A program made the translations under genes and the position numbers. A DNA stretch of 45,607 nt from Minisyncoccota bacterium (GTDB lineage: Bacteria; Patescibacteriota; Minisyncoccia; Phycocordibacterales; Zambryskibacteraceae). Under the pieces are notes generated by a model, which searched no databases, was not told the DNA's origin, and saw only the letters and a program-made list of their open reading frames with translations. This document shows, one piece after another, positions 10,049-45,607 of this stretch. How positions within the stretch are numbered: the stretch's first letter is position 1; each line of letters opens with the position of its first letter. The stretch lies in contig DATDVZ010000002.1 in NCBI GenBank assembly GCA_036517475.1, forward strand, positions 1-45,607, written 5' to 3'.

Positions 10049-11404
10049 CTATTCTTTCATAACGATATCGTGGCTTCCTCGCCTGATATCAAAGCGATCC
10101 GGTTCAGGATCAAAATGAATCTTGAGTCCTTGTGCACCGAAGGTTTCTAGGAGGGAATATCCCATTTGGCGAGCTCTTTGCCTTAAAGTGGGATGCACAA
10201 ATCGAGTTGAGCGTAATTCTACTATGTATACAAGAGCTGGAATGTCTCCTGAAAGCTGATTGGGAAGAATATATCCCATTGGAATGTAATATTGACTTTC
10301 AAAATCAGTTGCATTCAGTGCCGCTATTCTTTGATCTTGTTCCCTTAAAAGAATCTTAGCTTCTTCTCTTACAGAAGTTGGAAGTTCTGATAAGTACCAA
10401 GAATGAAAACCATGAGATGTAGTAACACGAGGCATCATCTGAATTATTGATCGATGCCTCTGAAGATCTCTGAAAGAACCGAAGTCAAGCATGAATTCAA
10501 ATCGAACTGTTCCACTGACTCCGACTTTCTTAGGAATCTCTGTCTTTGGTGGTCTTCTTTCTAGAGTCTCACGGAAGTTCCTAAGTAAATCAGTGTCTAC
10601 ACCACTAAATGCCAAACGAAAATCTACCCATACTTCTTTGTTAAAGTAATATTCATTCTTCATCCACCATGCATTGTAGTCTTCTGTTGCCTCATATTTC
10701 TTTTGATTAAACGAGTTGGGATGAGCTTCTCTTAAAGCATCTTCCATAGCCTCAGCAACATTACGGACTTCTAGTAGTGGATGATGACGAAGAAGCATTA
10801 TGTGGTCGGACGCCTGCCTTAGGTTTGTTTCCCAAGAAAGATTGGTAGAAGCTCCGGCAGGCAAGAAACCTCGCATGATATCAAAAGCGCGAGCTTTCAC
10901 TGCTTTTTCGTATAGCTTTTCATCTTCCCCTTCTTGTCTTGGGAATCTGCGTTCAACATCTTCAATTGTTGAAGATAGACCTCTAACGTAAAAATCTCTC
11001 CAAGCCTCAAGAATTACTTCTCCTTCTGCTGATCCAAGGGGATTGACTAGGTGCTGTTTCGCAAAATCAATGTAGCGGGTTGAGGACTCCTGGCCGCTGT
11101 AAAGCATCCAGTCCTGGATGGCTTTAGCGACAAGCATTGAAACACCCTCAATAAAGATTTCAGTTGTTCCACAATCACCAATTGATTTGTCGCCATAACC
11201 GACATAATAAGTCTGCATAAGACCGCCCGAACCTTTTTTCGCCAGGATGCCTAAGTGATGTCTAAGGCCTCCCACTGATCGTGAATGAAGCGCCTGAAGC
11301 ATTGCCCTATCTTCAGCTGTAATAACAGCGCCCGTGTCAAGAATAATTACAGAACCAAGATCTGGAAGAGCCCTTTCCACATGTCTAAGAGAATCTAATG
11401 ACAT
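10049..11404 (-). CDS. thyX: FAD-dependent thymidylate synthase ThyX-like, tandem-duplicated (two Thy1 repeats in one chain)
   Basis: The second repeat has FRDLQRHRS (RHR motif) and LVYIVELRSTRFVHPTLRQRARQM, matching the ThyX C-terminal motif. The first repeat has EIFIEGVSMLVAKAI, SGQESSTRY and ARAFDIMRGFLPAGASTNLSWETNLRQASDHIML, but lacks RHR. Confidence 0.6.
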   Translation of the reverse strand: MSLDSLRHVERALPDLGSVIILDTGAVITAEDRAMLQALHSRSVGGLRHHLGILAKKGSGGLMQTYYVGYGDKSIGDCGTTEIFIEGVSMLVAKAIQDWMLYSGQESSTRYIDFAKQHLVNPLGSAEGEVILEAWRDFYVRGLSSTIEDVERRFPRQEGEDEKLYEKAVKARAFDIMRGFLPAGASTNLSWETNLRQASDHIMLLRHHPLLEVRNVAEAMEDALREAHPNSFNQKKYEATEDYNAWWMKNEYYFNKEVWVDFRLAFSGVDTDLLRNFRETLERRPPKTEIPKKVGVSGTVRFEFMLDFGSFRDLQRHRSIIQMMPRVTTSHGFHSWYLSELPTSVREEAKILLREQDQRIAALNATDFESQYYIPMGYILPNQLSGDIPALVYIVELRSTRFVHPTLRQRARQMGYSLLETFGAQGLKIHFDPEPDRFDIRRGSHDIVMKE

Positions 11405-14862: not shown

Positions 14863-17800
14863 ATGGCTAGAAATAGAGTTAACCTACAACCTACAACTTA
14901 CAACAAACAATCCAAGTCTTTACTGGCGCAAAAGGAGGAGGAGATTCTAGATTTCTGGAGACAGAATAAAATTTTCCAAAAATCTCTTGAAAAGCCCTCC
15001 CCAAAGGGAGAATTTGTATTTTATGAGGGTCCTCCAACCGCCAATGGCAAACCGGGGATGCATCACTTTTATCAGCGCGCTTTCAAAGACCTTATTCCGC
15101 GCTTCAAGACAATGCAGGGTTACCATGTCAGAAGAAAAGCGGGCTGGGATACTCACGGTCTTCCAGTTGAGCTTGAGGTTGAAAAAAAACTCGGGATTAA
15201 ATCAAAAAAAGAAATAGAGACTTATGGTATTGCAAAATTTAATGAAGAGTGTAAAAAAAGTGTTTGGACGTATGTTCTAGAGTGGGAGGATTTTTCAAAA
15301 AGGATGGGATTTTGGTTGGACTTTGAAAATCCATATGTAACTTACGAGCCCCAGTATATTGAATCAATATGGAGCATTGTTAAACATATTGATGACAGAG
15401 GACTTTTATATAAAGACTATAAAGTTGTGCCGTGGTGTCCTAGATGCGGCACAGCACTCTCTTCTCATGAACTGGCACAGGGATACGAGGATGTTAAGGA
15501 CGTTTCGGTTTTTGTTAAATTCAAAATAACTAACAACAAACAACCAACAACTAACAACACTTATCTGCTTGCGTGGACAACTACACCTTGGACACTGCCG
15601 GGAAATGTTGCTTTAGCAGTTGGAGAGAACATTGAATATGTAGAAGTAACCAACAACCAACAACTAACAACCAACAATAAAAAAGAACATTTAATATTGG
15701 CAAAAAATAGACTCACTGTTTTTGATAAAGAATACGAGATTGTCAAAGAACTTAAAGGAAGAGATTTAGTTGGTTTGGAGTATGAACCATTGTTTCCATA
15801 TTTGAAAGATAATATTTCCGAGTCACAAAAGGAAAATTTAAAAAATGCTTATAAAGTTTACCCGGCGGATTTTGTTACAACAGAGGAGGGTACCGGTATA
15901 GTTCATACAGCAGTGATGTACGGTCAGGATGATTTTGAATTGGGGACAAAAATTGGCTTACCCAAGCATCACTTAGTTGGGGAAGATGGAAAATTTCTTC
16001 CAAATACAGGCGAAATTTCCGGCAAGTTTGTAAAAGATAAAGAAACCCAAGATTGGATAATAAATGACCTTAAATCAAGAAACTTGTTATTAAAAGAGGA
16101 GCTCTATGAACACTCTTATCCATTCTGTTGGAGATGTAATACGCCTTTAATTTATTACGCAAGGGATTCGTGGTATATAGCCATGTCCAAATTGCGCAAC
16201 AATCTGCTGAAAGAAAATGAAAAAATTAATTGGAATCCGGAATACATTAAAGAAGGCAGGTTCGGTGAATGGTTAAGGGAAGTCAAAGACTGGGCAATCT
16301 CTCGTGAACGTTACTGGGGGACCCCTCTTCCAGTCTGGCAAAATGAAAAGAACGAAAAAATAATTGTTGATTCAATTGAGACACTCAAGAAATATATTCC
16401 AAAATCAGGAAACCGCCACTTTGGAATGCGGCACGGTATCTCTGATCATAATATCTCGTTTACTTGCAGTTCATCAGAAAATTACGCAGATCACGTGACA
16501 GAAAAAGGAATAGGAGAAATTAAAAAGACTGCCCAAATTTTAAAGAGCAAAAATATAACAAAAATTTTTTCCTCTCCTTTTGTCCGTACCAAAGAAACAG
16601 CAGAAATTGTCGCAAAAGAAATCAATTTTCCGGTTGAAAAAATAATTTATGATGACAGAATTCGCGAATACAATTTTGGTGTATTTGATCAGAAATCTCG
16701 TAATTTATATGATGAATGGCGAAAAGAAAACAACAAATTTGACTCAAAACCCGATGGAGGGGAATCTTTCGCTGATGCTAAAAAAAGGGTAGCTGAATTT
16801 TTTTACGACATTGATCATAAACATAAAGATGAAAATATTCTCTTCATTACTCACGGCATTGCATTTGAAGTTCTTCCCTCGATTATTAATGGTTTGTCAG
16901 TAGAAGTTGGCTGGAAGGGTTGGGCACAAAGCGATGTTTTGTATGCAGATTTGAGAGAATATGAGTTTGTCCGACTTCCTCATAATGAAGAATATGAAAT
17001 TGACTTGCATAAACCTTATATTGATGAAATTGTCCTTGTAAAAGATGGTAAAGAATATCAAAGAGTGAAAGAAGTAATGGATGTCTGGTTTGATTCCGGT
17101 TCAATGCCCCTATCTCAGGATCATTATCCCTTCGACTCCTTCGACAATGCTCAGGATAAATCCGCTCAGGGTAAACCTTTTGAAAACACAAAGCTATTAT
17201 ATCCGGCGGATTTTATATGCGAGGGTCTTGATCAAACAAGGGGCTGGTTCTATACACTACATGCGATTGGTAATTTGATGGAAATGGGTCATGCCTATAA
17301 AAACGTTATATGTTTGGGGATACTTTTGGATGAAAAGGGACAAAAGATGTCAAAATCAAAAGGTAATGTCGTTGATCCATGGCAGCAAATGGAAAAATTC
17401 GGGGCTGACCCGCTGCGCTACTGGTTTTATGCTGTTAATCAGCCGGGTGAGTCAAAGGATTTTGATGAAAAATCTATTGATGAAGTCGTAAAGAAAGTTT
17501 TCAATCTTTATTTAAACTCAGTAAAGTTTTATGAGCTTTATGCTGAAAAAAACACCATAAAAATTGGGCGTTCTCACATTCTTGATCGCTGGATTATATC
17601 TTTACTCAATAAACTAATTGAGGAAGTAACGAATGATCTGGAATCGTACAAAGTCTTTGAAGCGGCACGTTCAATTCGAGAATTTATCTCTCAACTCTCC
17701 CAGTGGTATATTCGCCGATCACGTAACCGTTTTAAAGAAGATATCGAAAGAAAGGAAGCGAGCGCGACATTAAGGGAAGTACTTCTTTCACTAGCTGAAA

Positions 17801-18375
17801 TTTTAGCTCCGTTTACGCCGTTTATATCTGAAGATGTTCACCGCCGCCTTAATGGGGAAGGAGAAAGCGTCCACTTGAGAAACTGGCCTGATGTTGGAGA
17901 AATAGATGAAAAAATTATTAATAGTATGGAGAAAACAAGGATGCTCACTTCCTTGGCACTTGAAGCGCGCGCCAAGGCCGGAATTAAAATACGCCAACCT
18001 CTTTTAAAATTAAAAATCAAGGATCAAAAATCAGGATTGCCCAGTGAATTTTTAGAAATAATTAAAGAAGAGGTTAATGTCAAAAATGTTGATTTTGATG
18101 AAACAATACTGGAAGAAATTGAACTTGATACTAAAATAACTGCAGAACTGAAAGAAGAAGGGGATTTAAGGGAAATAATAAGAGCTTTTCAGGAAGCTAG
18201 AAAAGCCAAACTCCTTACCCCTGAGAAGCAAATATCTTCTTCTGTTAATGTTGATGCGAAAACAGCAGAAATAATAGAAAAAAACACCGACGAAATTAAA
18301 AGAAAAGCCAGAATCTCTTTTATTAGCATCAATATCGGCGATGAAGACAGTAAACTTGAAATAAATTTAGAATAG
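14863..18375 (+). CDS. ileS: isoleucine--tRNA ligase (type 2) with inserted histidine-phosphatase-like domain and in-frame heptamer-repeat tracts
   Basis: HIGH-region PPTANGKPGMHHFYQRAF, editing-domain WTTTPWTLP, KMSKSKGN, and a long C-terminal extension. Residues ~515-690 form an extra domain carrying RHG and THG motifs. Confidence 0.95.
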   Translation: MARNRVNLQPTTYNKQSKSLLAQKEEEILDFWRQNKIFQKSLEKPSPKGEFVFYEGPPTANGKPGMHHFYQRAFKDLIPRFKTMQGYHVRRKAGWDTHGLPVELEVEKKLGIKSKKEIETYGIAKFNEECKKSVWTYVLEWEDFSKRMGFWLDFENPYVTYEPQYIESIWSIVKHIDDRGLLYKDYKVVPWCPRCGTALSSHELAQGYEDVKDVSVFVKFKITNNKQPTTNNTYLLAWTTTPWTLPGNVALAVGENIEYVEVTNNQQLTTNNKKEHLILAKNRLTVFDKEYEIVKELKGRDLVGLEYEPLFPYLKDNISESQKENLKNAYKVYPADFVTTEEGTGIVHTAVMYGQDDFELGTKIGLPKHHLVGEDGKFLPNTGEISGKFVKDKETQDWIINDLKSRNLLLKEELYEHSYPFCWRCNTPLIYYARDSWYIAMSKLRNNLLKENEKINWNPEYIKEGRFGEWLREVKDWAISRERYWGTPLPVWQNEKNEKIIVDSIETLKKYIPKSGNRHFGMRHGISDHNISFTCSSSENYADHVTEKGIGEIKKTAQILKSKNITKIFSSPFVRTKETAEIVAKEINFPVEKIIYDDRIREYNFGVFDQKSRNLYDEWRKENNKFDSKPDGGESFADAKKRVAEFFYDIDHKHKDENILFITHGIAFEVLPSIINGLSVEVGWKGWAQSDVLYADLREYEFVRLPHNEEYEIDLHKPYIDEIVLVKDGKEYQRVKEVMDVWFDSGSMPLSQDHYPFDSFDNAQDKSAQGKPFENTKLLYPADFICEGLDQTRGWFYTLHAIGNLMEMGHAYKNVICLGILLDEKGQKMSKSKGNVVDPWQQMEKFGADPLRYWFYAVNQPGESKDFDEKSIDEVVKKVFNLYLNSVKFYELYAEKNTIKIGRSHILDRWIISLLNKLIEEVTNDLESYKVFEAARSIREFISQLSQWYIRRSRNRFKEDIERKEASATLREVLLSLAEILAPFTPFISEDVHRRLNGEGESVHLRNWPDVGEIDEKIINSMEKTRMLTSLALEARAKAGIKIRQPLLKLKIKDQKSGLPSEFLEIIKEEVNVKNVDFDETILEEIELDTKITAELKEEGDLREIIRAFQEARKAKLLTPEKQISSSVNVDAKTAEIIEKNTDEIKRKARISFISINIGDEDSKLEINLE
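14883..14910. repeat. heptamer tandem repeat (CCTACAA)2-CTTACAA-CAAACAA at ileS 5' end
   Basis: Four consecutive 7-mers. The tract is translated as the N-terminal NLQPTTYNKQ. Confidence 0.6.
15528..15560. repeat. heptamer tandem repeat TAACAAC-AAACAAC-CAACAAC-TAACAAC within ileS
   Basis: Translated in-frame as TNNKQPTTNNT, immediately N-terminal to the WTTTPWT editing motif. Confidence 0.65.
15648..15680. repeat. heptamer tandem repeat CAACAAC-CAACAAC-TAACAAC-CAACAAT within ileS
   Basis: Translated in-frame as VTNNQQLTTNNKK, 90 nt downstream of the previous tract. Confidence 0.65.
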
Positions 18376-19127: not shown

Positions 19128-21035
19128 ATGCCTAAAAATAAACTGGAAAAACTTGAGGAAAGGTTATATTCGAGAAAATTTGAACCTGGTAAAAGTGAGA
19201 GATTTGCGCTCGGCAAGGACGATGCACAAGAGTCAAAATCTTGGGAAGATAAAGAAGGGGTGAGTGATCTTATCAGGACGCATCTTGATGATAGAGATAA
19301 AAAAGGAAAGTTGCTTAAAAAAATTCTGGTCTCTTCAATAATCTTTTTTGCTGTCGCGGTTTTAGTTTCATTTTTTATTTTTTTTGGCGGCAGAAATGCT
19401 GTCTCTTCTAAAAATATAGGTATTTCTGTAAGTGGCCCAAGCACAGTTGCTGGGGGAGAAATTCTCTCTCTTGATGTTACGGTTAGTAATGATAATAATG
19501 TTGCGCTTCGTAATGTGGTTTTAATTGTAGAGTATCCAAATGGCACCAAAGTTGCCCTTGATCTTTCCAAGGAGCTTACCAGAGCGCGAGAGACAATTGA
19601 CAAAATTGATGCGCGAGCAAGACTTACAAAAAATTTCAAGGCAGTGCTTTTCGGCGAGAAAGAGGAGATAAAGCAGATTAAATTCACTCTTGAATACCGT
19701 CTTGAAGGATCAAGTGCACTCTTCAGCAAAGACAAGTTTTTTGAAATCCTTATCAAATCTTCTCCAGTAATACTGGAATTAAATTATCCTAACGAGGTAA
19801 ATTCAGGAAAACCATTTGAGATAATTCTAAGTTTATCTTCAAACAGTTTGGAAACTCTAAAAAATGTTTTATTAACGGCAACATTTCCATTTGGTTTCAG
19901 CTTTTCTGATTCGGAGCCCAGAGCATCTGATGGTAATAATGTCTGGAAAATTGGGGATTTGGAAAGCGGGGAGAAAAAGCTGATAAAGATTCACGGCAGT
20001 ATTATTGGAGAAGATGAAGATGAGAGAACATTCAATTTTTCTGCGGGGATTGAGGGCAGAGAACAAAATGTCATTGAAGCGAACTTCACGACATCAATTG
20101 CTACAATTTTTATTAAAAAACCGTTTATATCTTTATCTGTCACAATAGATGGTAAAAACCCCGAAGACTTCTCTGTCATTCCTGGGCAAAAATCAAAAGT
20201 TAATATTGTCTGGTCCAATAATTTACCCGAAACGGTAAATAACATGAAAATTGAGGCAAAAATTGAGGGAGTTGTGCTTGATCGTTCATCAGTAATTACT
20301 ACAGAGGGTGGGTTTTATAGGTCATTTGACAATACTATTGTCTGGGATAGAGGCAGTGACCCTGATTTTGATTCCGTCTCCTCTGGTGAAAAGGGTGTTG
20401 TCGGATTCTCGTTTGCTCCAATTTCAAATATTTCATCATCTCTGCGCAATCAAAAAATTGTGTTAAATATTAGCGCATCTGGCAATATTTCTTCTCCGAC
20501 TGGTTCCAAACCAGTATCTTCTAGCATTTCTGAAGATATAAAGATATATTCCGCACTTGGTCTTAGCGGTATGGCCGTAAGATCCATTGGTCCATTTGAG
20601 AATATGGGTCCTATACCACCAAAAGCTGACAATGAAACTACTTACACAATTATTTTTTCACTCTCAAGCCCATTCAATGATATAAATTCTGTTGAAGTGA
20701 CAGGTAGCTTACCCTCTTATATTGCTTGGAAAAATCTCACATCACCTTTAAATGAAAATGTAACATATGATGAAAATAGGAGGGTTGTAACTTGGAAAGC
20801 CGGCATTGTACGTGCGGGTTTGGGTAGTGGAAATACAAGGCAAGTCGCTTTTCAGATTTCTCTTACACCCAGTTTAAGTCAAGTAGGTAATCTAGTTAAT
20901 TTGCTGACCGATATTGTAGCAACAGGTTTTGATCAGTTTACAAACCAGAATCAAAGAGTGACAATTTCTTCAATCACTACACGCACTATTTCTGATCCGC
21001 AGTTTAAGGAAGGTGATGATAAGGTGGTGAAATAA
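19128..21035 (+). CDS. membrane-anchored large surface protein with Ig-like/CARDB-type repeats
   Basis: Charged N-terminus and one TM helix (ILVSSIIFFAVAVLVSFFIFF). A ~540-aa extracellular region follows, with repeated beta-rich segments. Confidence 0.55.
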   Translation: MPKNKLEKLEERLYSRKFEPGKSERFALGKDDAQESKSWEDKEGVSDLIRTHLDDRDKKGKLLKKILVSSIIFFAVAVLVSFFIFFGGRNAVSSKNIGISVSGPSTVAGGEILSLDVTVSNDNNVALRNVVLIVEYPNGTKVALDLSKELTRARETIDKIDARARLTKNFKAVLFGEKEEIKQIKFTLEYRLEGSSALFSKDKFFEILIKSSPVILELNYPNEVNSGKPFEIILSLSSNSLETLKNVLLTATFPFGFSFSDSEPRASDGNNVWKIGDLESGEKKLIKIHGSIIGEDEDERTFNFSAGIEGREQNVIEANFTTSIATIFIKKPFISLSVTIDGKNPEDFSVIPGQKSKVNIVWSNNLPETVNNMKIEAKIEGVVLDRSSVITTEGGFYRSFDNTIVWDRGSDPDFDSVSSGEKGVVGFSFAPISNISSSLRNQKIVLNISASGNISSPTGSKPVSSSISEDIKIYSALGLSGMAVRSIGPFENMGPIPPKADNETTYTIIFSLSSPFNDINSVEVTGSLPSYIAWKNLTSPLNENVTYDENRRVVTWKAGIVRAGLGSGNTRQVAFQISLTPSLSQVGNLVNLLTDIVATGFDQFTNQNQRVTISSITTRTISDPQFKEGDDKVVK

Positions 21036-21073
21036 CCAACAACTAACAACTAACAACCAATAACTAACAACTG
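21035..21073. repeat. heptamer tandem repeat (CTAACAA-like x5) in the intergenic region upstream of glyQS
   Basis: The sequence is AACCAACAACTAACAACTAACAACCAATAACTAACAACTGG. Confidence 0.65.
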
Positions 21074-24078: not shown

Positions 24079-25128
24079 ATGAATAATATAAGTATATCTT
24101 CAGGGACAATTGTCAGAGCAATACTTTTTGGTGTTCTTTTTTATTTTCTATTTTTAATAAAGGATGTAATTCTTATATTACTTACTGGTATTGTAATAGC
24201 CTCTGCTATTGAACCAGGCACGCGATGGTTTATCCGCCATAGAATTCCTAGGATTCCTGCAGTACTTGCGATTTATCTTGCCACAGCAGTTATTTTTGTT
24301 TCGGCTTTCTACTTTCTCCTAGTGCCCCTGGTAACTGAAACAGCAAATTTTCTCCAGACTCTTCCTGAATATTCACAGACTCTAAGTCAAAGTCAGAGTT
24401 TTCAGAATGTCACAGAGAATTCCGGCGACTTAATTCAAAACATTACTGAAGGTTTTTCACTGCCTTCAATTGCAAATACAGTGAATGCCGCGTTATCAAA
24501 GATATCTGCGGGTTTTTTCGGCACAGTTGACGTTATCTTCGGAGGTATTGCAAGCTTCTTATTGATAATTGTTCTTTCATTTTACTTAGCTGTACAGGAT
24601 GATGGTGTAGGGAAATTCCTCAAAATGGTAACGCCCGTTAGTCATGAAAAATACGTCGTTGGTCTATGGGAAAGGTCAAAAGAAAAAATCGGGCTTTGGA
24701 TGCAGGGCCAACTCTTACTCGCGATTATTGTAGGAATCATGACTTTTTTGGGTTTGACTATAATTGGTATAAAGGGGGCCTTACTCCTTGCTTTTTTTGC
24801 AGCAATTTTTGAAATCATTCCTTTATTCGGACCATTTCTTGCTGCAGTACCAGCAGTCCTGGTTGCATTTGTTGATGGCGGTTTAACCCTGGCATTAATT
24901 GCTACTGGACTCTATGTTGTTATCCAGCAGTTTGAATCTCAGCTCATCTATCCTTTGGTTGTAAAAAAAGTTATCGGAGTTCCTCCAATAATTTCAATTA
25001 TTGCCATTGTCGTGGGCCTTAAGCTGGGAGGTTTTTTGGGAGTAATTCTTTCAGTGCCCCTCGCAACAGTTCTCTTGGAGGTCTTAAGCGATCTGGAGAA
25101 AAGAAAGAAACTAACAACTAATAACTAA
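24079..25128 (+). CDS. AI-2E family transporter (PerM/UPF0118)
   Basis: Polytopic membrane protein with the AI-2E topology and conserved mid-region. Confidence 0.7.
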   Translation: MNNISISSGTIVRAILFGVLFYFLFLIKDVILILLTGIVIASAIEPGTRWFIRHRIPRIPAVLAIYLATAVIFVSAFYFLLVPLVTETANFLQTLPEYSQTLSQSQSFQNVTENSGDLIQNITEGFSLPSIANTVNAALSKISAGFFGTVDVIFGGIASFLLIIVLSFYLAVQDDGVGKFLKMVTPVSHEKYVVGLWERSKEKIGLWMQGQLLLAIIVGIMTFLGLTIIGIKGALLLAFFAAIFEIIPLFGPFLAAVPAVLVAFVDGGLTLALIATGLYVVIQQFESQLIYPLVVKKVIGVPPIISIIAIVVGLKLGGFLGVILSVPLATVLLEVLSDLEKRKKLTTNN

Positions 25129-25138
25129 CTACGAACCA
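25111..25138. repeat. heptamer tandem repeat CTAACAA-CTAATAA-CTAACTA-CGAACCA spanning the AI-2E gene stop
   Basis: It encodes the C-terminal KLTTNN and extends past the stop codon. Confidence 0.55.
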
Positions 25139-25203
25139 TCTAAAAGATTTTAAGTTTGGAAGTTTGTAAGCGTTTATTATATTTAATTTAAACAGATAAA
25201 CTT

Positions 25204-26124
25204 ATGAGCGAAGCGGAACTTAGTAACTTACCGACTTACTTTGACGTTCATTCGCATTTAAATTTTCCCGATTACGGGGACGAACTTTCTGAAATCATAA
25301 AAAGAATGAAAGAAGCGGGAGTATGGACTATTTGTATAGGAACTAACTTTAAAGATTCTCAAGTGGCAGTCGAGCTTGCAGAAAAACACGAGGGAATTTT
25401 TGCTTGTGTCGGTATTCACCCCATTAAAGAAGATCTACCCAAGGACTCCCCTTGGGAATTGGAATCTAAGGGGAGTCCTTGGGATTTTAATGAGACGGAA
25501 CTTGAAAAACTCGTAAATCACCCGAAGGTGGTTGCGGTGGGAGAGTGCGGACTTGATTACTTTTCCGCCCCAGGCGGACCCGCCTCTGGCGGAGGTGGTT
25601 TGAGCGAGGGTGAAAAAGACAGGCAGAGGGATCTTTTTAAAAAACAAATTGAGTTTGCACTTAAGCATGATAAACCTCTGATGATCCACGCGCGCTCTGC
25701 CTACGATGAAATAATCGAAATTCTTTTTGAGTATAAAAGAAAAGAGCTCGAGGACTCCCCTTGGGAATTGAAACTTAAGGGGAGTCCTCGAGACCCAGGG
25801 CTTCGAGGCAACATTCATTTTTTCACAGGAAATCTGGAGCAAGCCAAAAAATTTATTGATCTGGGTTTCACTCTTTCATTTGCCGGTCCGATCACTTTTG
25901 CAAGAGATTATGATGAAGTAATTAAAAATATCCCTATAGAGTCGATTCTTTCTGAGACCGATTCACCATTTGTTGCACCTGCTCCATATCGGGGTAAGCG
26001 CAACGAACCCTCCTATGTAATAGAGATTGTAAAAAAACTTGCCGAAATTCGTGAGGAAAACGAGGAAGTATTTCAAAAACAACTTGTCGCAAACGCTCTA
26101 GAGTTATTCCAAATAAAGCCTTAA
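25204..26124 (+). CDS. tatD: TatD family metal-dependent deoxyribonuclease, with three in-frame palindromic insertions
   Basis: FDVHSHLNF, GIHP, VAVGECGLDY, MIHAR and SETDSPF are all present. There are extra in-frame segments, DSPWELESKGSP and DSPWELKLKGSP, and a Gly-rich insert. Confidence 0.85.
   Translation: MSEAELSNLPTYFDVHSHLNFPDYGDELSEIIKRMKEAGVWTICIGTNFKDSQVAVELAEKHEGIFACVGIHPIKEDLPKDSPWELESKGSPWDFNETELEKLVNHPKVVAVGECGLDYFSAPGGPASGGGGLSEGEKDRQRDLFKKQIEFALKHDKPLMIHARSAYDEIIEILFEYKRKELEDSPWELKLKGSPRDPGLRGNIHFFTGNLEQAKKFIDLGFTLSFAGPITFARDYDEVIKNIPIESILSETDSPFVAPAPYRGKRNEPSYVIEIVKKLAEIREENEEVFQKQLVANALELFQIKP
25443..25478. repeat. 36-nt palindromic element copy 1 (GGACTCCCCTT-14nt-AAGGGGAGTCC) inside tatD ORF
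   Basis: The 11-bp arms are perfect reverse complements. The element is in-frame and encodes DSPWELESKGSP. Confidence 0.7.
25752..25787. repeat. 36-nt palindromic element copy 2 inside tatD ORF (flanked by CTCGAG on both sides)
   Basis: Near-identical to copy 1. It encodes DSPWELKLKGSP. The palindrome extends to 14 bp when the CGAG/CTCG flanks are included. Confidence 0.7.
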
Positions 26125-26321
26125 AATAAAACAACCTTTAGCTATTGGTCGTTTATATCTCAATGCAACCCTGTTAAGGTTAAACCTTGACATGTAATTG
26201 CAGAATTCCTGTTTCTTGATTCTATAAACCCATCATGCTACTCTAACCTCCTATCTAAAAGGTAGTTTATTAGTTAATCCGCTCCGCCAGCTGGCGGACG
26301 GAAGGGAATACCCATATAGAA

Positions 26322-36232: not shown

Positions 36233-36281
36233 TCTAGTTTTCTATCGTTTTCCTCTGGCTTCGGCTAAAGGAAGCGAAAAC

Positions 36282-36310
36282 AAAACTCCCGCGAAAGCGG
36301 GAGTTTTGTT
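36282..36310 (+). terminator. rho-independent terminator AAAACTCCCGC-gaaa-GCGGGAGTTTT
   Basis: Perfect 11-bp stem, GAAA loop, T-run. Confidence 0.8.
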
Positions 36311-36366
36311 ATATGTGTAAATATTCTTATTTCTGGGCGTACAATTTAGGCTTTTTTAAAACACCA

Positions 36367-36407
36367 CCCATGTCAACCTGCCAGGTTGACATGGGTGTGG
36401 TATCAGA
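36367..36407. repeat. ~40-nt near-perfect palindrome CACCCATGTCAACCTG|CCAGGTTGACATGGGTG (TTGACA on both arms)
   Basis: 14-bp perfect arms plus partially paired extension. Confidence 0.5.
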
Positions 36408-36486
36408 ATTATCAACTTAATTTTGAGTTTATAAACATAATGTCAACAATATATAAGGGTAATTTCCACAAGTATTCCACTGTTTT

Positions 36487-36610
36487 ATACCCCATGAGAT
36501 ATAAAGGGAAATATCGATTTATTTTAAAATTACATCAAACAGTTTTAAGTTTCATCGAGTATTGCAAAAATTATCTCACGGGGTATGGCCATATAATATC
36601 TCACGGGGTA
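36487..36610. repeat. ~120-bp inverted-repeat-bounded element, copy 2 (ATACCCCATGAGAT ... ATCTCACGGGGTA x2, each followed by TATAAT/TAAAAT)
   Basis: The inverse 13-mer is at 36488-36500. Direct 13-mers are at 36573-36585 and 36598-36610. -10-like boxes lie at 36592-36597 and 36609-36614. Confidence 0.45.
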
Positions 36611-36812
36611 AAATTAATACATGTGGAAGCTGTTTGATAACACATTCTTCAAGTTTCTATTTGGGTTTCTTGTAATACTTGCTATAAGTATTCTTATTCT
36701 TTTTGCCGCCCAGTATTGGAGTAAAAAAGGAAATCCCGATTCAACTTACGTTCAAGTGAGTTCTCAATAATTTGCAGTTGACACTCAACGGGTCTTTTGT
36801 TTGTATTGTTAA

Positions 36813-45466: not shown

Positions 45467-45607
45467 ATGGCAACAGTTGAAATGCCCCAAACCAAACCCT
45501 GTCAGTTTGGTTTGCCTTGGCGAGGAGCTTGCGGAAAGCCAACCGATAATGGTTGGTGTACTGAACATGAACACCTCAAATGTGTCTCATGCGGCAAGCG
45601 CGCTGTG
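45467..45607 (+). CDS. Cys-rich small protein, 5' partial at window edge
   Basis: GGAGGA SD lies 7 nt upstream of ATG 45467. The C-x-C/H-x-H spacing (CQFG...CGKP...CTEHEHLKCVSC) suggests a zinc ribbon. Confidence 0.45.
   Translation, partial: MATVEMPQTKPCQFGLPWRGACGKPTDNGWCTEHEHLKCVSCGKRAV

Follow-up and report, generated by a model that had tools for sequence, protein, structure and literature searches.

The tatD gene of a groundwater member of Candidatus Paceibacterota (Candidate Phyla Radiation [CPR]/Patescibacteria) is interrupted by two 46-nt palindromes that leave its reading frame intact. The gene lies in a 45,607-nt stretch of DNA (contig DATDVZ010000002.1, positions 1 to 45,607), here referred to as the window. 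The palindromes are missing from the nearest TatD orthologs and are placed in loops of the protein; the same stem is dispersed through the genomes of other Patescibacteria, and it is linked to a Y1 transposase gene and covaries with it from lineage to lineage. We consider it probable (roughly 75%) that the palindromes are nonautonomous elements resembling repetitive extragenic palindromic (REP) sequences and their doublets (REPINs), that they belong to a family widespread in Patescibacteria, and that their cognate enzyme is a Y1 protein resembling the REP-associated tyrosine transposases (RAYTs).

Palindromic insertions in tatD

The first-pass annotation of the window had described two 36-nt palindromes within the TatD open reading frame (ORF). 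Both were confirmed on the plus strand at 25443 to 25478 and 25752 to 25787, and they encode the in-frame peptides given for them (DSPWELESKGSP and DSPWELKLKGSP). A hairpin scan revealed that the perfect palindromes are longer than had been thought, measuring 46 nt with 16-bp Watson-Crick stems, and the cores differ at three positions (33/36 identical) rather than at the two loop positions reported. The 36-mer had zero matches in any shuffle of the window. The CTCGAG noted on both sides of the second copy is indeed there, but it forms the outer stem and represents no target-site duplication or direct repeat. The features of the locus are as follows.

tatD: 25204 to 26124, plus strand; 306-amino-acid ORF that carries all three inserts
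Element 1: 25438 to 25483, plus strand; 46-nt palindrome (CCCAA/core...core/TTGGG) with a 16-bp stem, a 14-nt loop, and its core at 25443 to 25478; product P79 to D94 (PKDSPWELESKGSPWD); the 5' arm (25438 to 25456) is the mini-hairpin CCCAAGG-ACTCC-CCTTGGG
Element 2: 25747 to 25792, plus strand; 46-nt palindrome with the same core (25752 to 25787) and the outer stem CTCGA/TCGAG; product L182 to D197 (LEDSPWELKLKGSPRD)
Third insert: 25564 to 25593, plus strand; tandem doublet TCCGCCccaGGCGGA / cCCGCCtctGGCGGA, that is, TCCGCC-cca-GGCGGA followed by cCCGCC-tct-GGCGGA; about 8 extra amino acids, encoding SAPGGPASGG directly after GECGLDYF
Solo copy of the third-insert hairpin (family 2): 26283 to 26298, plus strand; TCCGCC-agct-GGCGGA in the tatD-rpsF spacer

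The two 46-nt palindromes (family 1) are unlike in their outer 5 bp (CCCAA/TTGGG versus CTCGA/TCGAG), which are complementary within each copy. Both fold at -37 kcal/mol as RNA (z scores of -6.2 and -7.9 against shuffles) and at about -19 kcal/mol as DNA (z scores of -6.6 and -7.5). Each arm is itself a mini-hairpin, that of element 1 (CCCAAGG-ACTCC-CCTTGGG) having a folding energy of -7.4 kcal/mol as DNA. Rfam and tRNA scans of the window gave no match, and the hairpins fit no known RNA family. Since the two copies have their loop (with the three differences), orientation, and frame in common, they are related by intragenomic duplication or transposition.

The host protein is a typical member of its family. 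The ORF matches Pfam PF01026 over residues 13 to 303 (E value of 2.8e-70), and residues H16, H18, E114, H162, H205, and D253 of the metal-binding motifs are invariant in the ortholog alignment. Comparison with solved TatD/YcfH structures (E values down to 1.4e-39) gave alignment gaps at the three insert sites. All three segments are absent from the closest homologs (P0002 to P0005; 57 to 61% identity and about 260 amino acids). The identical protein is encoded on 8 contigs from independent assemblies; an assembly artifact was considered and rejected, as the ENA, JGI, and Logan assemblies give an identical sequence.

An AlphaFold model of TatD is a confident TIM barrel (mean predicted local distance difference test [pLDDT] score of 84.9; predicted template modeling score of 0.86). 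All three inserts map to loops that connect secondary-structure elements, and all are among the segments modeled with low confidence, in agreement with the earlier suggestion that such insertions are tolerated in surface loops. Element 1 lies between the strand at 65 to 69 and the helix at 97 to 104 (pLDDT below 50 at residues 85 to 89), the third insert between the strand at 109 to 113 and the helix at 135 to 154 (mean pLDDT of 65 for residues 121 to 130), and element 2 between the helix at 167 to 183 and the strand at 202 to 205 (pLDDT below 50 at residues 190 to 192).

The GC-rich third insert had also been recognized at first pass. Its position after GECGLDYF holds, but its extent had been overstated: GEKDRQRD is ordinary TatD sequence and is present in the closest homolog, P0002. 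The pattern CCGCC-N2-6-GGCGG has 3 matches in the window, compared with 0.01 expected, and in-frame doublets with a 15-nt period were found in other CPR genes, where they encode SAKGGSASGG (loci L016 and L017), SAGGGSASGG (L047), and SAKGGPSSGG (L004). The third insert probably represents the same phenomenon as elements 1 and 2, produced by a second mini-hairpin family. We also observed a family 2 tandem doublet (TCCGCC-N3-GGCGGA) elsewhere in this genome (L091, 7073 to 7100; about 2.7 kb upstream of position 1 of the window), within a gene for a 3-methyladenine DNA glycosylase (Pur_DNA_glyco), another DNA repair gene.

At site 1, the loop after GVHP, the syntenic TatD orthologs of a sister clade have GC-rich palindromes of other sequence (CCCCCTCTTA..TAAGAGGGGG, CCCCCCTCTCCT..AGGAGAGGGGGG, and CCAAGGTAACACCTT..AAGGTGTCACCTTGG). 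They lie at the following positions.

L083: 6214 to 6237
L084: 6211 to 6241
L085: 6202 to 6231
L086: 762 to 803
L087: 1121 to 1144 and 1174 to 1197

The L086 palindrome has the same CCAAGG-N5-CCTT architecture. Site 1 is either a permissive loop that has been struck repeatedly or the place of an old insert that has retained its palindromic character.

Dispersal of the family 1 stem among Patescibacteria

The pattern GGACTCCCCTT-N(8-20)-AAGGGGAGTCC was found in 51 metagenome contigs, and GGACTCCCCTT-N(3-30)-AAGGGGAGTCC was found in 28 stretches of GTDB species-representative genomes, where we estimate that about 2 would occur by chance. The stem core common to the copies is 11 bp. Copies with AA/TT or GA/TC flanks come nearly all from Patescibacteria (Doudna-, Yonath-, and Vogelbacteria, Saccharibacteria, and Paceibacterota). 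Matches in non-CPR genomes (Streptomyces, Gemmiger, Bacteroides, Beijerinckia, and others) were set aside as chance or unrelated occurrences; most are without the CCAA/TTGG extension, and some are terminator-like. Viral contigs gave no match.

The 59 distinct CPR-type copies comprise 28 that lie within long ORFs, 16 close to the ends of ORFs, and 15 in intergenic DNA. In every one of the 28 internal copies the host frame is intact and there is no in-frame stop codon, and between them these copies use all three frames (GLPL..GES, [EK]DSP..KGSP, and RTPLG..RGVLG). No frame of the stem contains a stop codon, and the stem, being self-complementary, reads alike in both orientations; these properties fit the use of all three frames.

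At least 19 unrelated host gene families were identified, in addition to intergenic DNA, and 8 of about 19 act on DNA. With a Pfam domain that runs in frame across the insert, the hosts include UvrA, UvrB, UvrC, LigA, SMC, ParB, and a PD-(D/E)XK nuclease, which serve DNA repair and maintenance, and the cell wall proteins MurB, MurC, and MurD. Pfam also supports the tRNA modification proteins TsaD (two independent cases), MnmA, and MiaA, as well as an IscS-like aminotransferase, trigger factor, PilB, and T2SSE; a LepA host was assigned by eye alone. A further TatD (L035) bears a family 1 hairpin at site 3. One hairpin-bearing ORF from a Patescibacteria metagenome-assembled genome (MAG) (L062, 1 to 3450) combines Peptidase_S74 with an intein splicing domain that has an NYN domain inside it.

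The same stem with the loop TAAAGGCCTCTC occurs in LigA, MurB, PilB, and MnmA, and the same stem with the loop TGGGAGCCGCTC occurs in MurC and trigger factor. Identity of stem and loop in nonhomologous genes is a signature of transposition rather than of descent. Among orthologous copies the stem is kept and the loop drifts, with in-frame 3-nt indels among the changes (MurC, L020 versus L022). The first-pass proposal of a mobile family that colonizes coding sequence is thereby supported: the same stem, and in subfamilies also the loop, lies in frame in many unrelated genes of Patescibacteria. The outer 5 to 10 bp of the stems are specific to each locus yet complementary (GTTTCCAA/TTGGAAAC and TGCGCCCCGA/TCGGGGCGCA).

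A linked Y1 transposase gene

At locus L006 the hairpin overlaps the 3' end of an ORF that matches Pfam PF01797 (Y1_Tnp, "Transposase IS200 like") with 30.5 bits against a cutoff of 23. By tblastn, Y1 homologs were found to adjoin the hairpin in L005, L036 (the same place as L067; Yonathbacteria), L038, L057 (Saccharibacteria), and L072 (Doudnabacteria), so that a Y1 gene lies within about 110 nt of a hairpin in six distinct loci; in L021 the homolog is 1.5 kb from the hairpin. The motif in these Y1 loci stands 40 to 110 nt upstream of the start codon and mostly also at or just past the 3' end, and four of the hairpin-linked loci have a half-site inside the Y1 gene at +156 to +165.

As an independent test, three Y1 genes were picked by protein homology alone (L088, L089, and L090; the proteins are P0139 from Zambryskibacteria, P0124 from Parcubacteria, and P0168 from Paceibacterota). 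All three have mini-hairpins at -53/-51 and at +155/156 of the Y1 gene, and L089 and L090 have an additional one 3 to 11 nt past the stop codon. Flanking of the type seen in REPtrons, with matching hairpins on both sides of Y1, was present in most of 10 loci, of which these three had been picked independently of the hairpin; L088, L005, and L072 have a clear match on one side only. The hairpin sequence covaries at all of the Y1 positions according to lineage, being CCAAGGG-NNN-CCCTTGG in L088 and L089. The hairpins of individual Y1 loci are as follows.

L088: ATCCAAGGG-cat/atg-CCCTTGGAT; internal copy at 10156 to 10178
L089: CCAAGGGGTCCCCTTGG; internal copy at 10156 to 10178
L090: CCAAAGT-ctc/gag-ACTTTGG; internal copy at 2843 to 2863
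L021: GCAAGGA-ccg-TCCTTGC, on both sides of Y1
L005, L006, and L036: internal copies at +156 to +165

The internal hairpin encodes IQG.PLD. In L090 this peptide becomes IQSLTLD while the hairpin is kept, which indicates that the constraint is on the nucleic acid and not on the protein. The placement of a hairpin inside the Y1 coding sequence suggests a function at the nucleic acid level, possibly autoregulation. Cognate singlets also lie in frame in neighboring genes (L088 at 15114 and L089 at 9428), and there are 4 to 6 singlets in each of the 20-kb loci L088 and L089.

The Y1 family has at least 8,000 database matches, and every named match comes from Patescibacteria. The Y1 proteins have an invariant HUH motif and an invariant tyrosine. 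The best NCBIfam model is that of the REP-associated tyrosine transposases (NF047646, REP_Tyr_transpos; E value of 8.6e-9). The best fold match of the Y1 model is 4ER8, the Escherichia coli RAYT bound to a REP hairpin (E value of 5.5e-7; TM score of 0.67); the TnpA proteins of IS608 and ISDra2 also are significant fold matches, behind 4ER8. The gene is syntenic in L088 and L089 (a Zambryskibacteria MAG and a Parcubacteria MAG), with the order RecA-FtsK-...-peptidoglycan-binding protein-tetratricopeptide repeat (TPR) protein-Y1-...-L10-L12, as would be expected from gene order of a vertically inherited RAYT. The window holds orthologs of RecA (80% identical), FtsK, and the peptidoglycan-binding protein. 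A weak tblastn match at window positions 45468 to 45557 was rejected as a Y1 gene by profile comparison.

Proposed origin, alternatives, and related systems

We propose the following origin for the tatD palindromes. Each element is a doublet of two inverted mini-hairpins (CCAAGG-N5-CCTTGG) that can form either one long hairpin or two short ones, and such doublets are REPIN-like. The candidate cognate enzyme is the Y1 (HUH) tyrosine transposase, which resembles RAYTs and has this hairpin on either side of its own gene. By analogy with the TnpA proteins of IS200/IS605 and with the E. coli RAYT, which act on hairpins in single-stranded DNA (PMC3479197, PMC3597680), Y1 would bind the hairpin in single-stranded DNA, and its catalytic tyrosine would cut the hairpin foot, so that singlets and inverted doublets could be moved or copied to new single-stranded sites. 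In tiny, gene-dense genomes with little intergenic space, many insertions would be expected to fall in genes, and the survivors would be those that keep the frame, bring no stop codon, and strike a permissive loop. The inserts that survived in tatD presumably are translated, lengthening three surface loops by roughly 14 to 16 residues. The intact frame of all 28 internal copies argues for translation and against splicing or bypass.

Mobilization by Y1, translation of the inserts, and a near-neutral effect on TatD are inferred, and several results weigh against this proposal. Exact-core copies number 1 to 3 per MAG in a genome scan, far below the numbers of classical REPINs. In the window, family 1 was found only as the tatD copies, whether whole elements or single arms were sought with up to 3 mismatches. 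A further 15.6 kb of the source contig (9.8 kb plus 5.8 kb, making about 61 kb with the window) contained no new family 1 copy and no Y1 gene. Further copies of the 36-mer, for which the first-pass annotation had recommended a genome-wide search, did not appear in about 61 kb, which holds 2 copies and no Y1 homolog. The place where the TPR gene and Y1 would be expected by synteny is empty in the window (36233 to 36812; 580 nt), with no recognizable remnant. Because Y1 is missing from its syntenic place and no further family 1 copy occurs in the 61 kb, the tatD copies may be relics. The Y1 protein scores 35 bits, compared with the NCBIfam RAYT cutoff of 80, and sequence searches of the PDB with the protein and with its profile gave no match even at an E value of 10. 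Copies inspected by eye, with no formal motif search, showed no GTAG or CGTC at the hairpin foot, tetranucleotides of which classical REPs have one or the other at one palindrome end (PMC3733652); the conserved context is instead (AT)CCAAGG...CCTTGG(AT). No pair of filled and empty sites was found at nucleotide resolution, the nearest insert-free TatD being only 61% identical, and as a consequence the element boundaries and target site are undefined. Finally, the complementary outer stems that vary from locus to locus imply that simple cut-and-paste is insufficient; arm-to-arm correction could generate them, as could the copying of host flank in inverted form.

The same observations bear on other explanations. 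The hairpins might be the ends, or miniature derivatives like the palindrome-associated transposable elements (PATEs), of an active IS200/IS605-type insertion sequence (IS) rather than parts of a domesticated single-copy RAYT-type system. This is in keeping with the Pfam class of the protein (Y1_Tnp, "Transposase IS200 like"), its score under the RAYT equivalog cutoff, the significant structural matches to IS608 and ISDra2 TnpA, and the bracketing of Y1 by hairpins in the manner of left-end and right-end hairpins. We nevertheless regard it as unlikely, given that Y1 occupies a conserved syntenic position in two lineages, that RAYT is the best match by both sequence and fold, and that the dispersed copies seen are solo hairpins and not whole Y1 units. 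Selection for a nucleic acid structure in tatD (one that stabilizes mRNA, pauses translation, or is regulatory) would account for stems that are conserved while loops drift, for the other GC-rich palindromes exactly at site 1 in sister-clade orthologs, and for the family 1 hairpin at site 3 of the L035 TatD. Recurrence at the same site is predicted equally by a permissive loop, however, and an element that is lacking from the closest TatD relatives, is spread over intergenic DNA and no fewer than 19 unrelated gene families, and brackets a transposase gene makes such selection quite improbable as the explanation.

GC-rich mobile inserts are bypassed by ribosomes in Magnusiomyces mitochondria, and the tatD hairpins may resemble such inserts. 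If the segments were cut from the mRNA or skipped, like the yeast mitochondrial "byp" elements or the T4 gene 60 gap, their high stability as RNA (-37 kcal/mol) would be understandable. Bypass or excision would impose neither a frame nor a stop codon constraint, yet the 28 internal copies without exception are in frame and stop free, the conserved Pfam domains run on past the insert without a change of frame, and the orthologous MurC copies of L020 and L022 differ by in-frame 3-nt indels; we therefore consider this explanation very improbable. The yeast GC clusters and byps are comparable as short GC-rich palindromic mobile inserts in the coding sequence of an AT-rich genome, but byps, which the ribosome skips, are free to disrupt the frame, whereas the present elements always preserve it and are stop free, and the hosts are unrelated. 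We know of no transposase for the mitochondrial GC cluster or byp elements. Least credible of all is an independent local origin of each palindrome by template switching or slippage, with similarity due to convergence: the variable, locus-specific, and yet complementary outer stems do suggest local palindrome building or arm-to-arm correction, but an identical 11- to 17-nt core recurs in dozens of unrelated loci and genomes, with common loop subfamilies and linkage to Y1.

The REP/REPIN-RAYT systems (TnpA-REP of E. coli, 4ER8, and the REPINs of Pseudomonas) are the closest analogue of the proposed elements. In both, short GC-rich hairpins stand alone or are paired in inverted doublets able to form a longer hairpin; they lie on either side of a Y1/HUH transposase gene and are scattered elsewhere in the genome as well. 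RAYTs are single copy and vertically inherited (PMC5581495), and the Y1 gene, being syntenic, seemingly is also inherited vertically. Di Nocera et al. (2013; PMC3733652) noted that intragenic REPs are particularly numerous in uvrA, uvrB, ligase, and polymerase genes, and our host gene list appears to lean the same way, toward genes that act on DNA. The differences are the host phylum, here Patescibacteria; the size of the divergent Y1 protein (about 220 to 240 amino acids with a C-terminal extension, compared with 165); the cognate hairpin inside the transposase gene at +156, which covaries with those of the flanks; and the copy number, since tens to hundreds of mostly extragenic copies would be expected and we found very few exact-core copies, of which about half are intragenic. 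We found no paper on such elements or on RAYTs in Patescibacteria in a literature search of incomplete coverage.

The first-pass annotation had likened the palindromes to the Rickettsia palindromic elements (RPEs). The likeness stands as far as the in-frame palindromic behavior is concerned, as RPEs are palindromes that lie in frame in housekeeping genes unrelated to one another, in a genome that is small and AT rich, and the peptides that they encode appear compatible with the fold (PMC10969869). RPEs are not the nearest analogue, however, because the hairpin here flanks the gene for a RAYT-like Y1 protein, which makes REP/REPIN-RAYT closer. RPEs are about 100 to 150 bp long, have their own conserved peptide, are restricted to Rickettsia (PMC10969869), and are CGTC tagged (PMC3733652). 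The present elements are about 46 nt, conserve only the stem, use three frames, are Y1 linked, and reside in Paceibacterota; RPEs are without a linked transposase, and there is no sequence similarity between the two. IS200/IS605 elements and PATEs have in common with the present system a Y1 HUH transposase, subterminal hairpins recognized as single-stranded DNA, and the lack of the usual terminal inverted repeats. They differ in that Y1 here is syntenic across lineages and not scattered, the dispersed parts seen being solo hairpins. No tnpB partner adjoins the Y1 gene in the L088, L089, and L090 loci.

The REPIN-like interpretation would tie the common "odd insertions" in CPR/Patescibacteria proteins to a concrete mobile DNA mechanism, with a very large Y1 family as the candidate enzyme. 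It would extend REP/RAYT biology to ultrasmall, gene-dense genomes in which essential genes themselves, and not the spaces between them, harbor the surviving elements, and it offers leads on how selfish DNA persists in minimal genomes. The inserts are natural experiments on protein loops that tolerate 12 to 16 extra residues, and they can mislead annotation, hidden Markov model alignment, and phylogeny of CPR proteins. The covarying hairpin inside Y1 and the complementary, locus-specific outer stems are leads on how elements are recognized and maintained. More speculatively, and with considerable doubt, Patescibacteria may hold a distinct REPIN-RAYT branch that is fitted to near-zero intergenic space. 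Its hairpin would be readable in every frame and orientation and would reside mainly in essential genes, notably those for DNA repair. Y1 would keep a coevolving internal hairpin as an autoregulatory or "master" site, and elements would lengthen as host flank is copied into their outer stems through arm-to-arm correction or inverted duplication, a process undescribed for REPs. If so, these elements would quite generally supply CPR proteins with loop insertions specific to a lineage.

Other features of the window were also noted. The 580-nt gap at the expected place of Y1 contains a 33-nt palindrome (36365 to 36397) that has a perfect 15-bp stem (CACCCATGTCAACCTG C CAGGTTGACATGGGTG) and is not similar to the tatD hairpins. 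Between the ORFs at 39469 to 39840 and 39907 to 40443 lies a perfect AT-rich palindrome of 44 nt (39853 to 39896), with 22-nt arms that are 100% complementary and no spacer. A direct-repeat motif rich in AACAAC/TAACAAC (family D1) occurs at 14867 to 14911, 15514 to 15558, 15634 to 15678, 21013 to 21071, and 25095 to 25139; several copies are at gene ends just 5' of the next start codon, including that of tatD, and the motif may be a leader or a ribosome-binding context. A 1,170-amino-acid class I aminoacyl-tRNA synthetase (tRNA-synt_1 and Anticodon_1) is encoded at 14863 to 18375 (the first called gene of L001), and a His_Phos_1 (histidine phosphatase) match between its two tRNA-synt_1 matches may be an inserted domain. 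The 277-amino-acid protein encoded at 40537 to 41370 has a PI3_PI4_kinase Pfam match, and the region from 41731 to 44253 (L092, 11210 to 13717) encodes a protein of 835 to 840 amino acids with Vault_3 and MVP_shoulder domains (major vault protein), which is unusual in bacteria.

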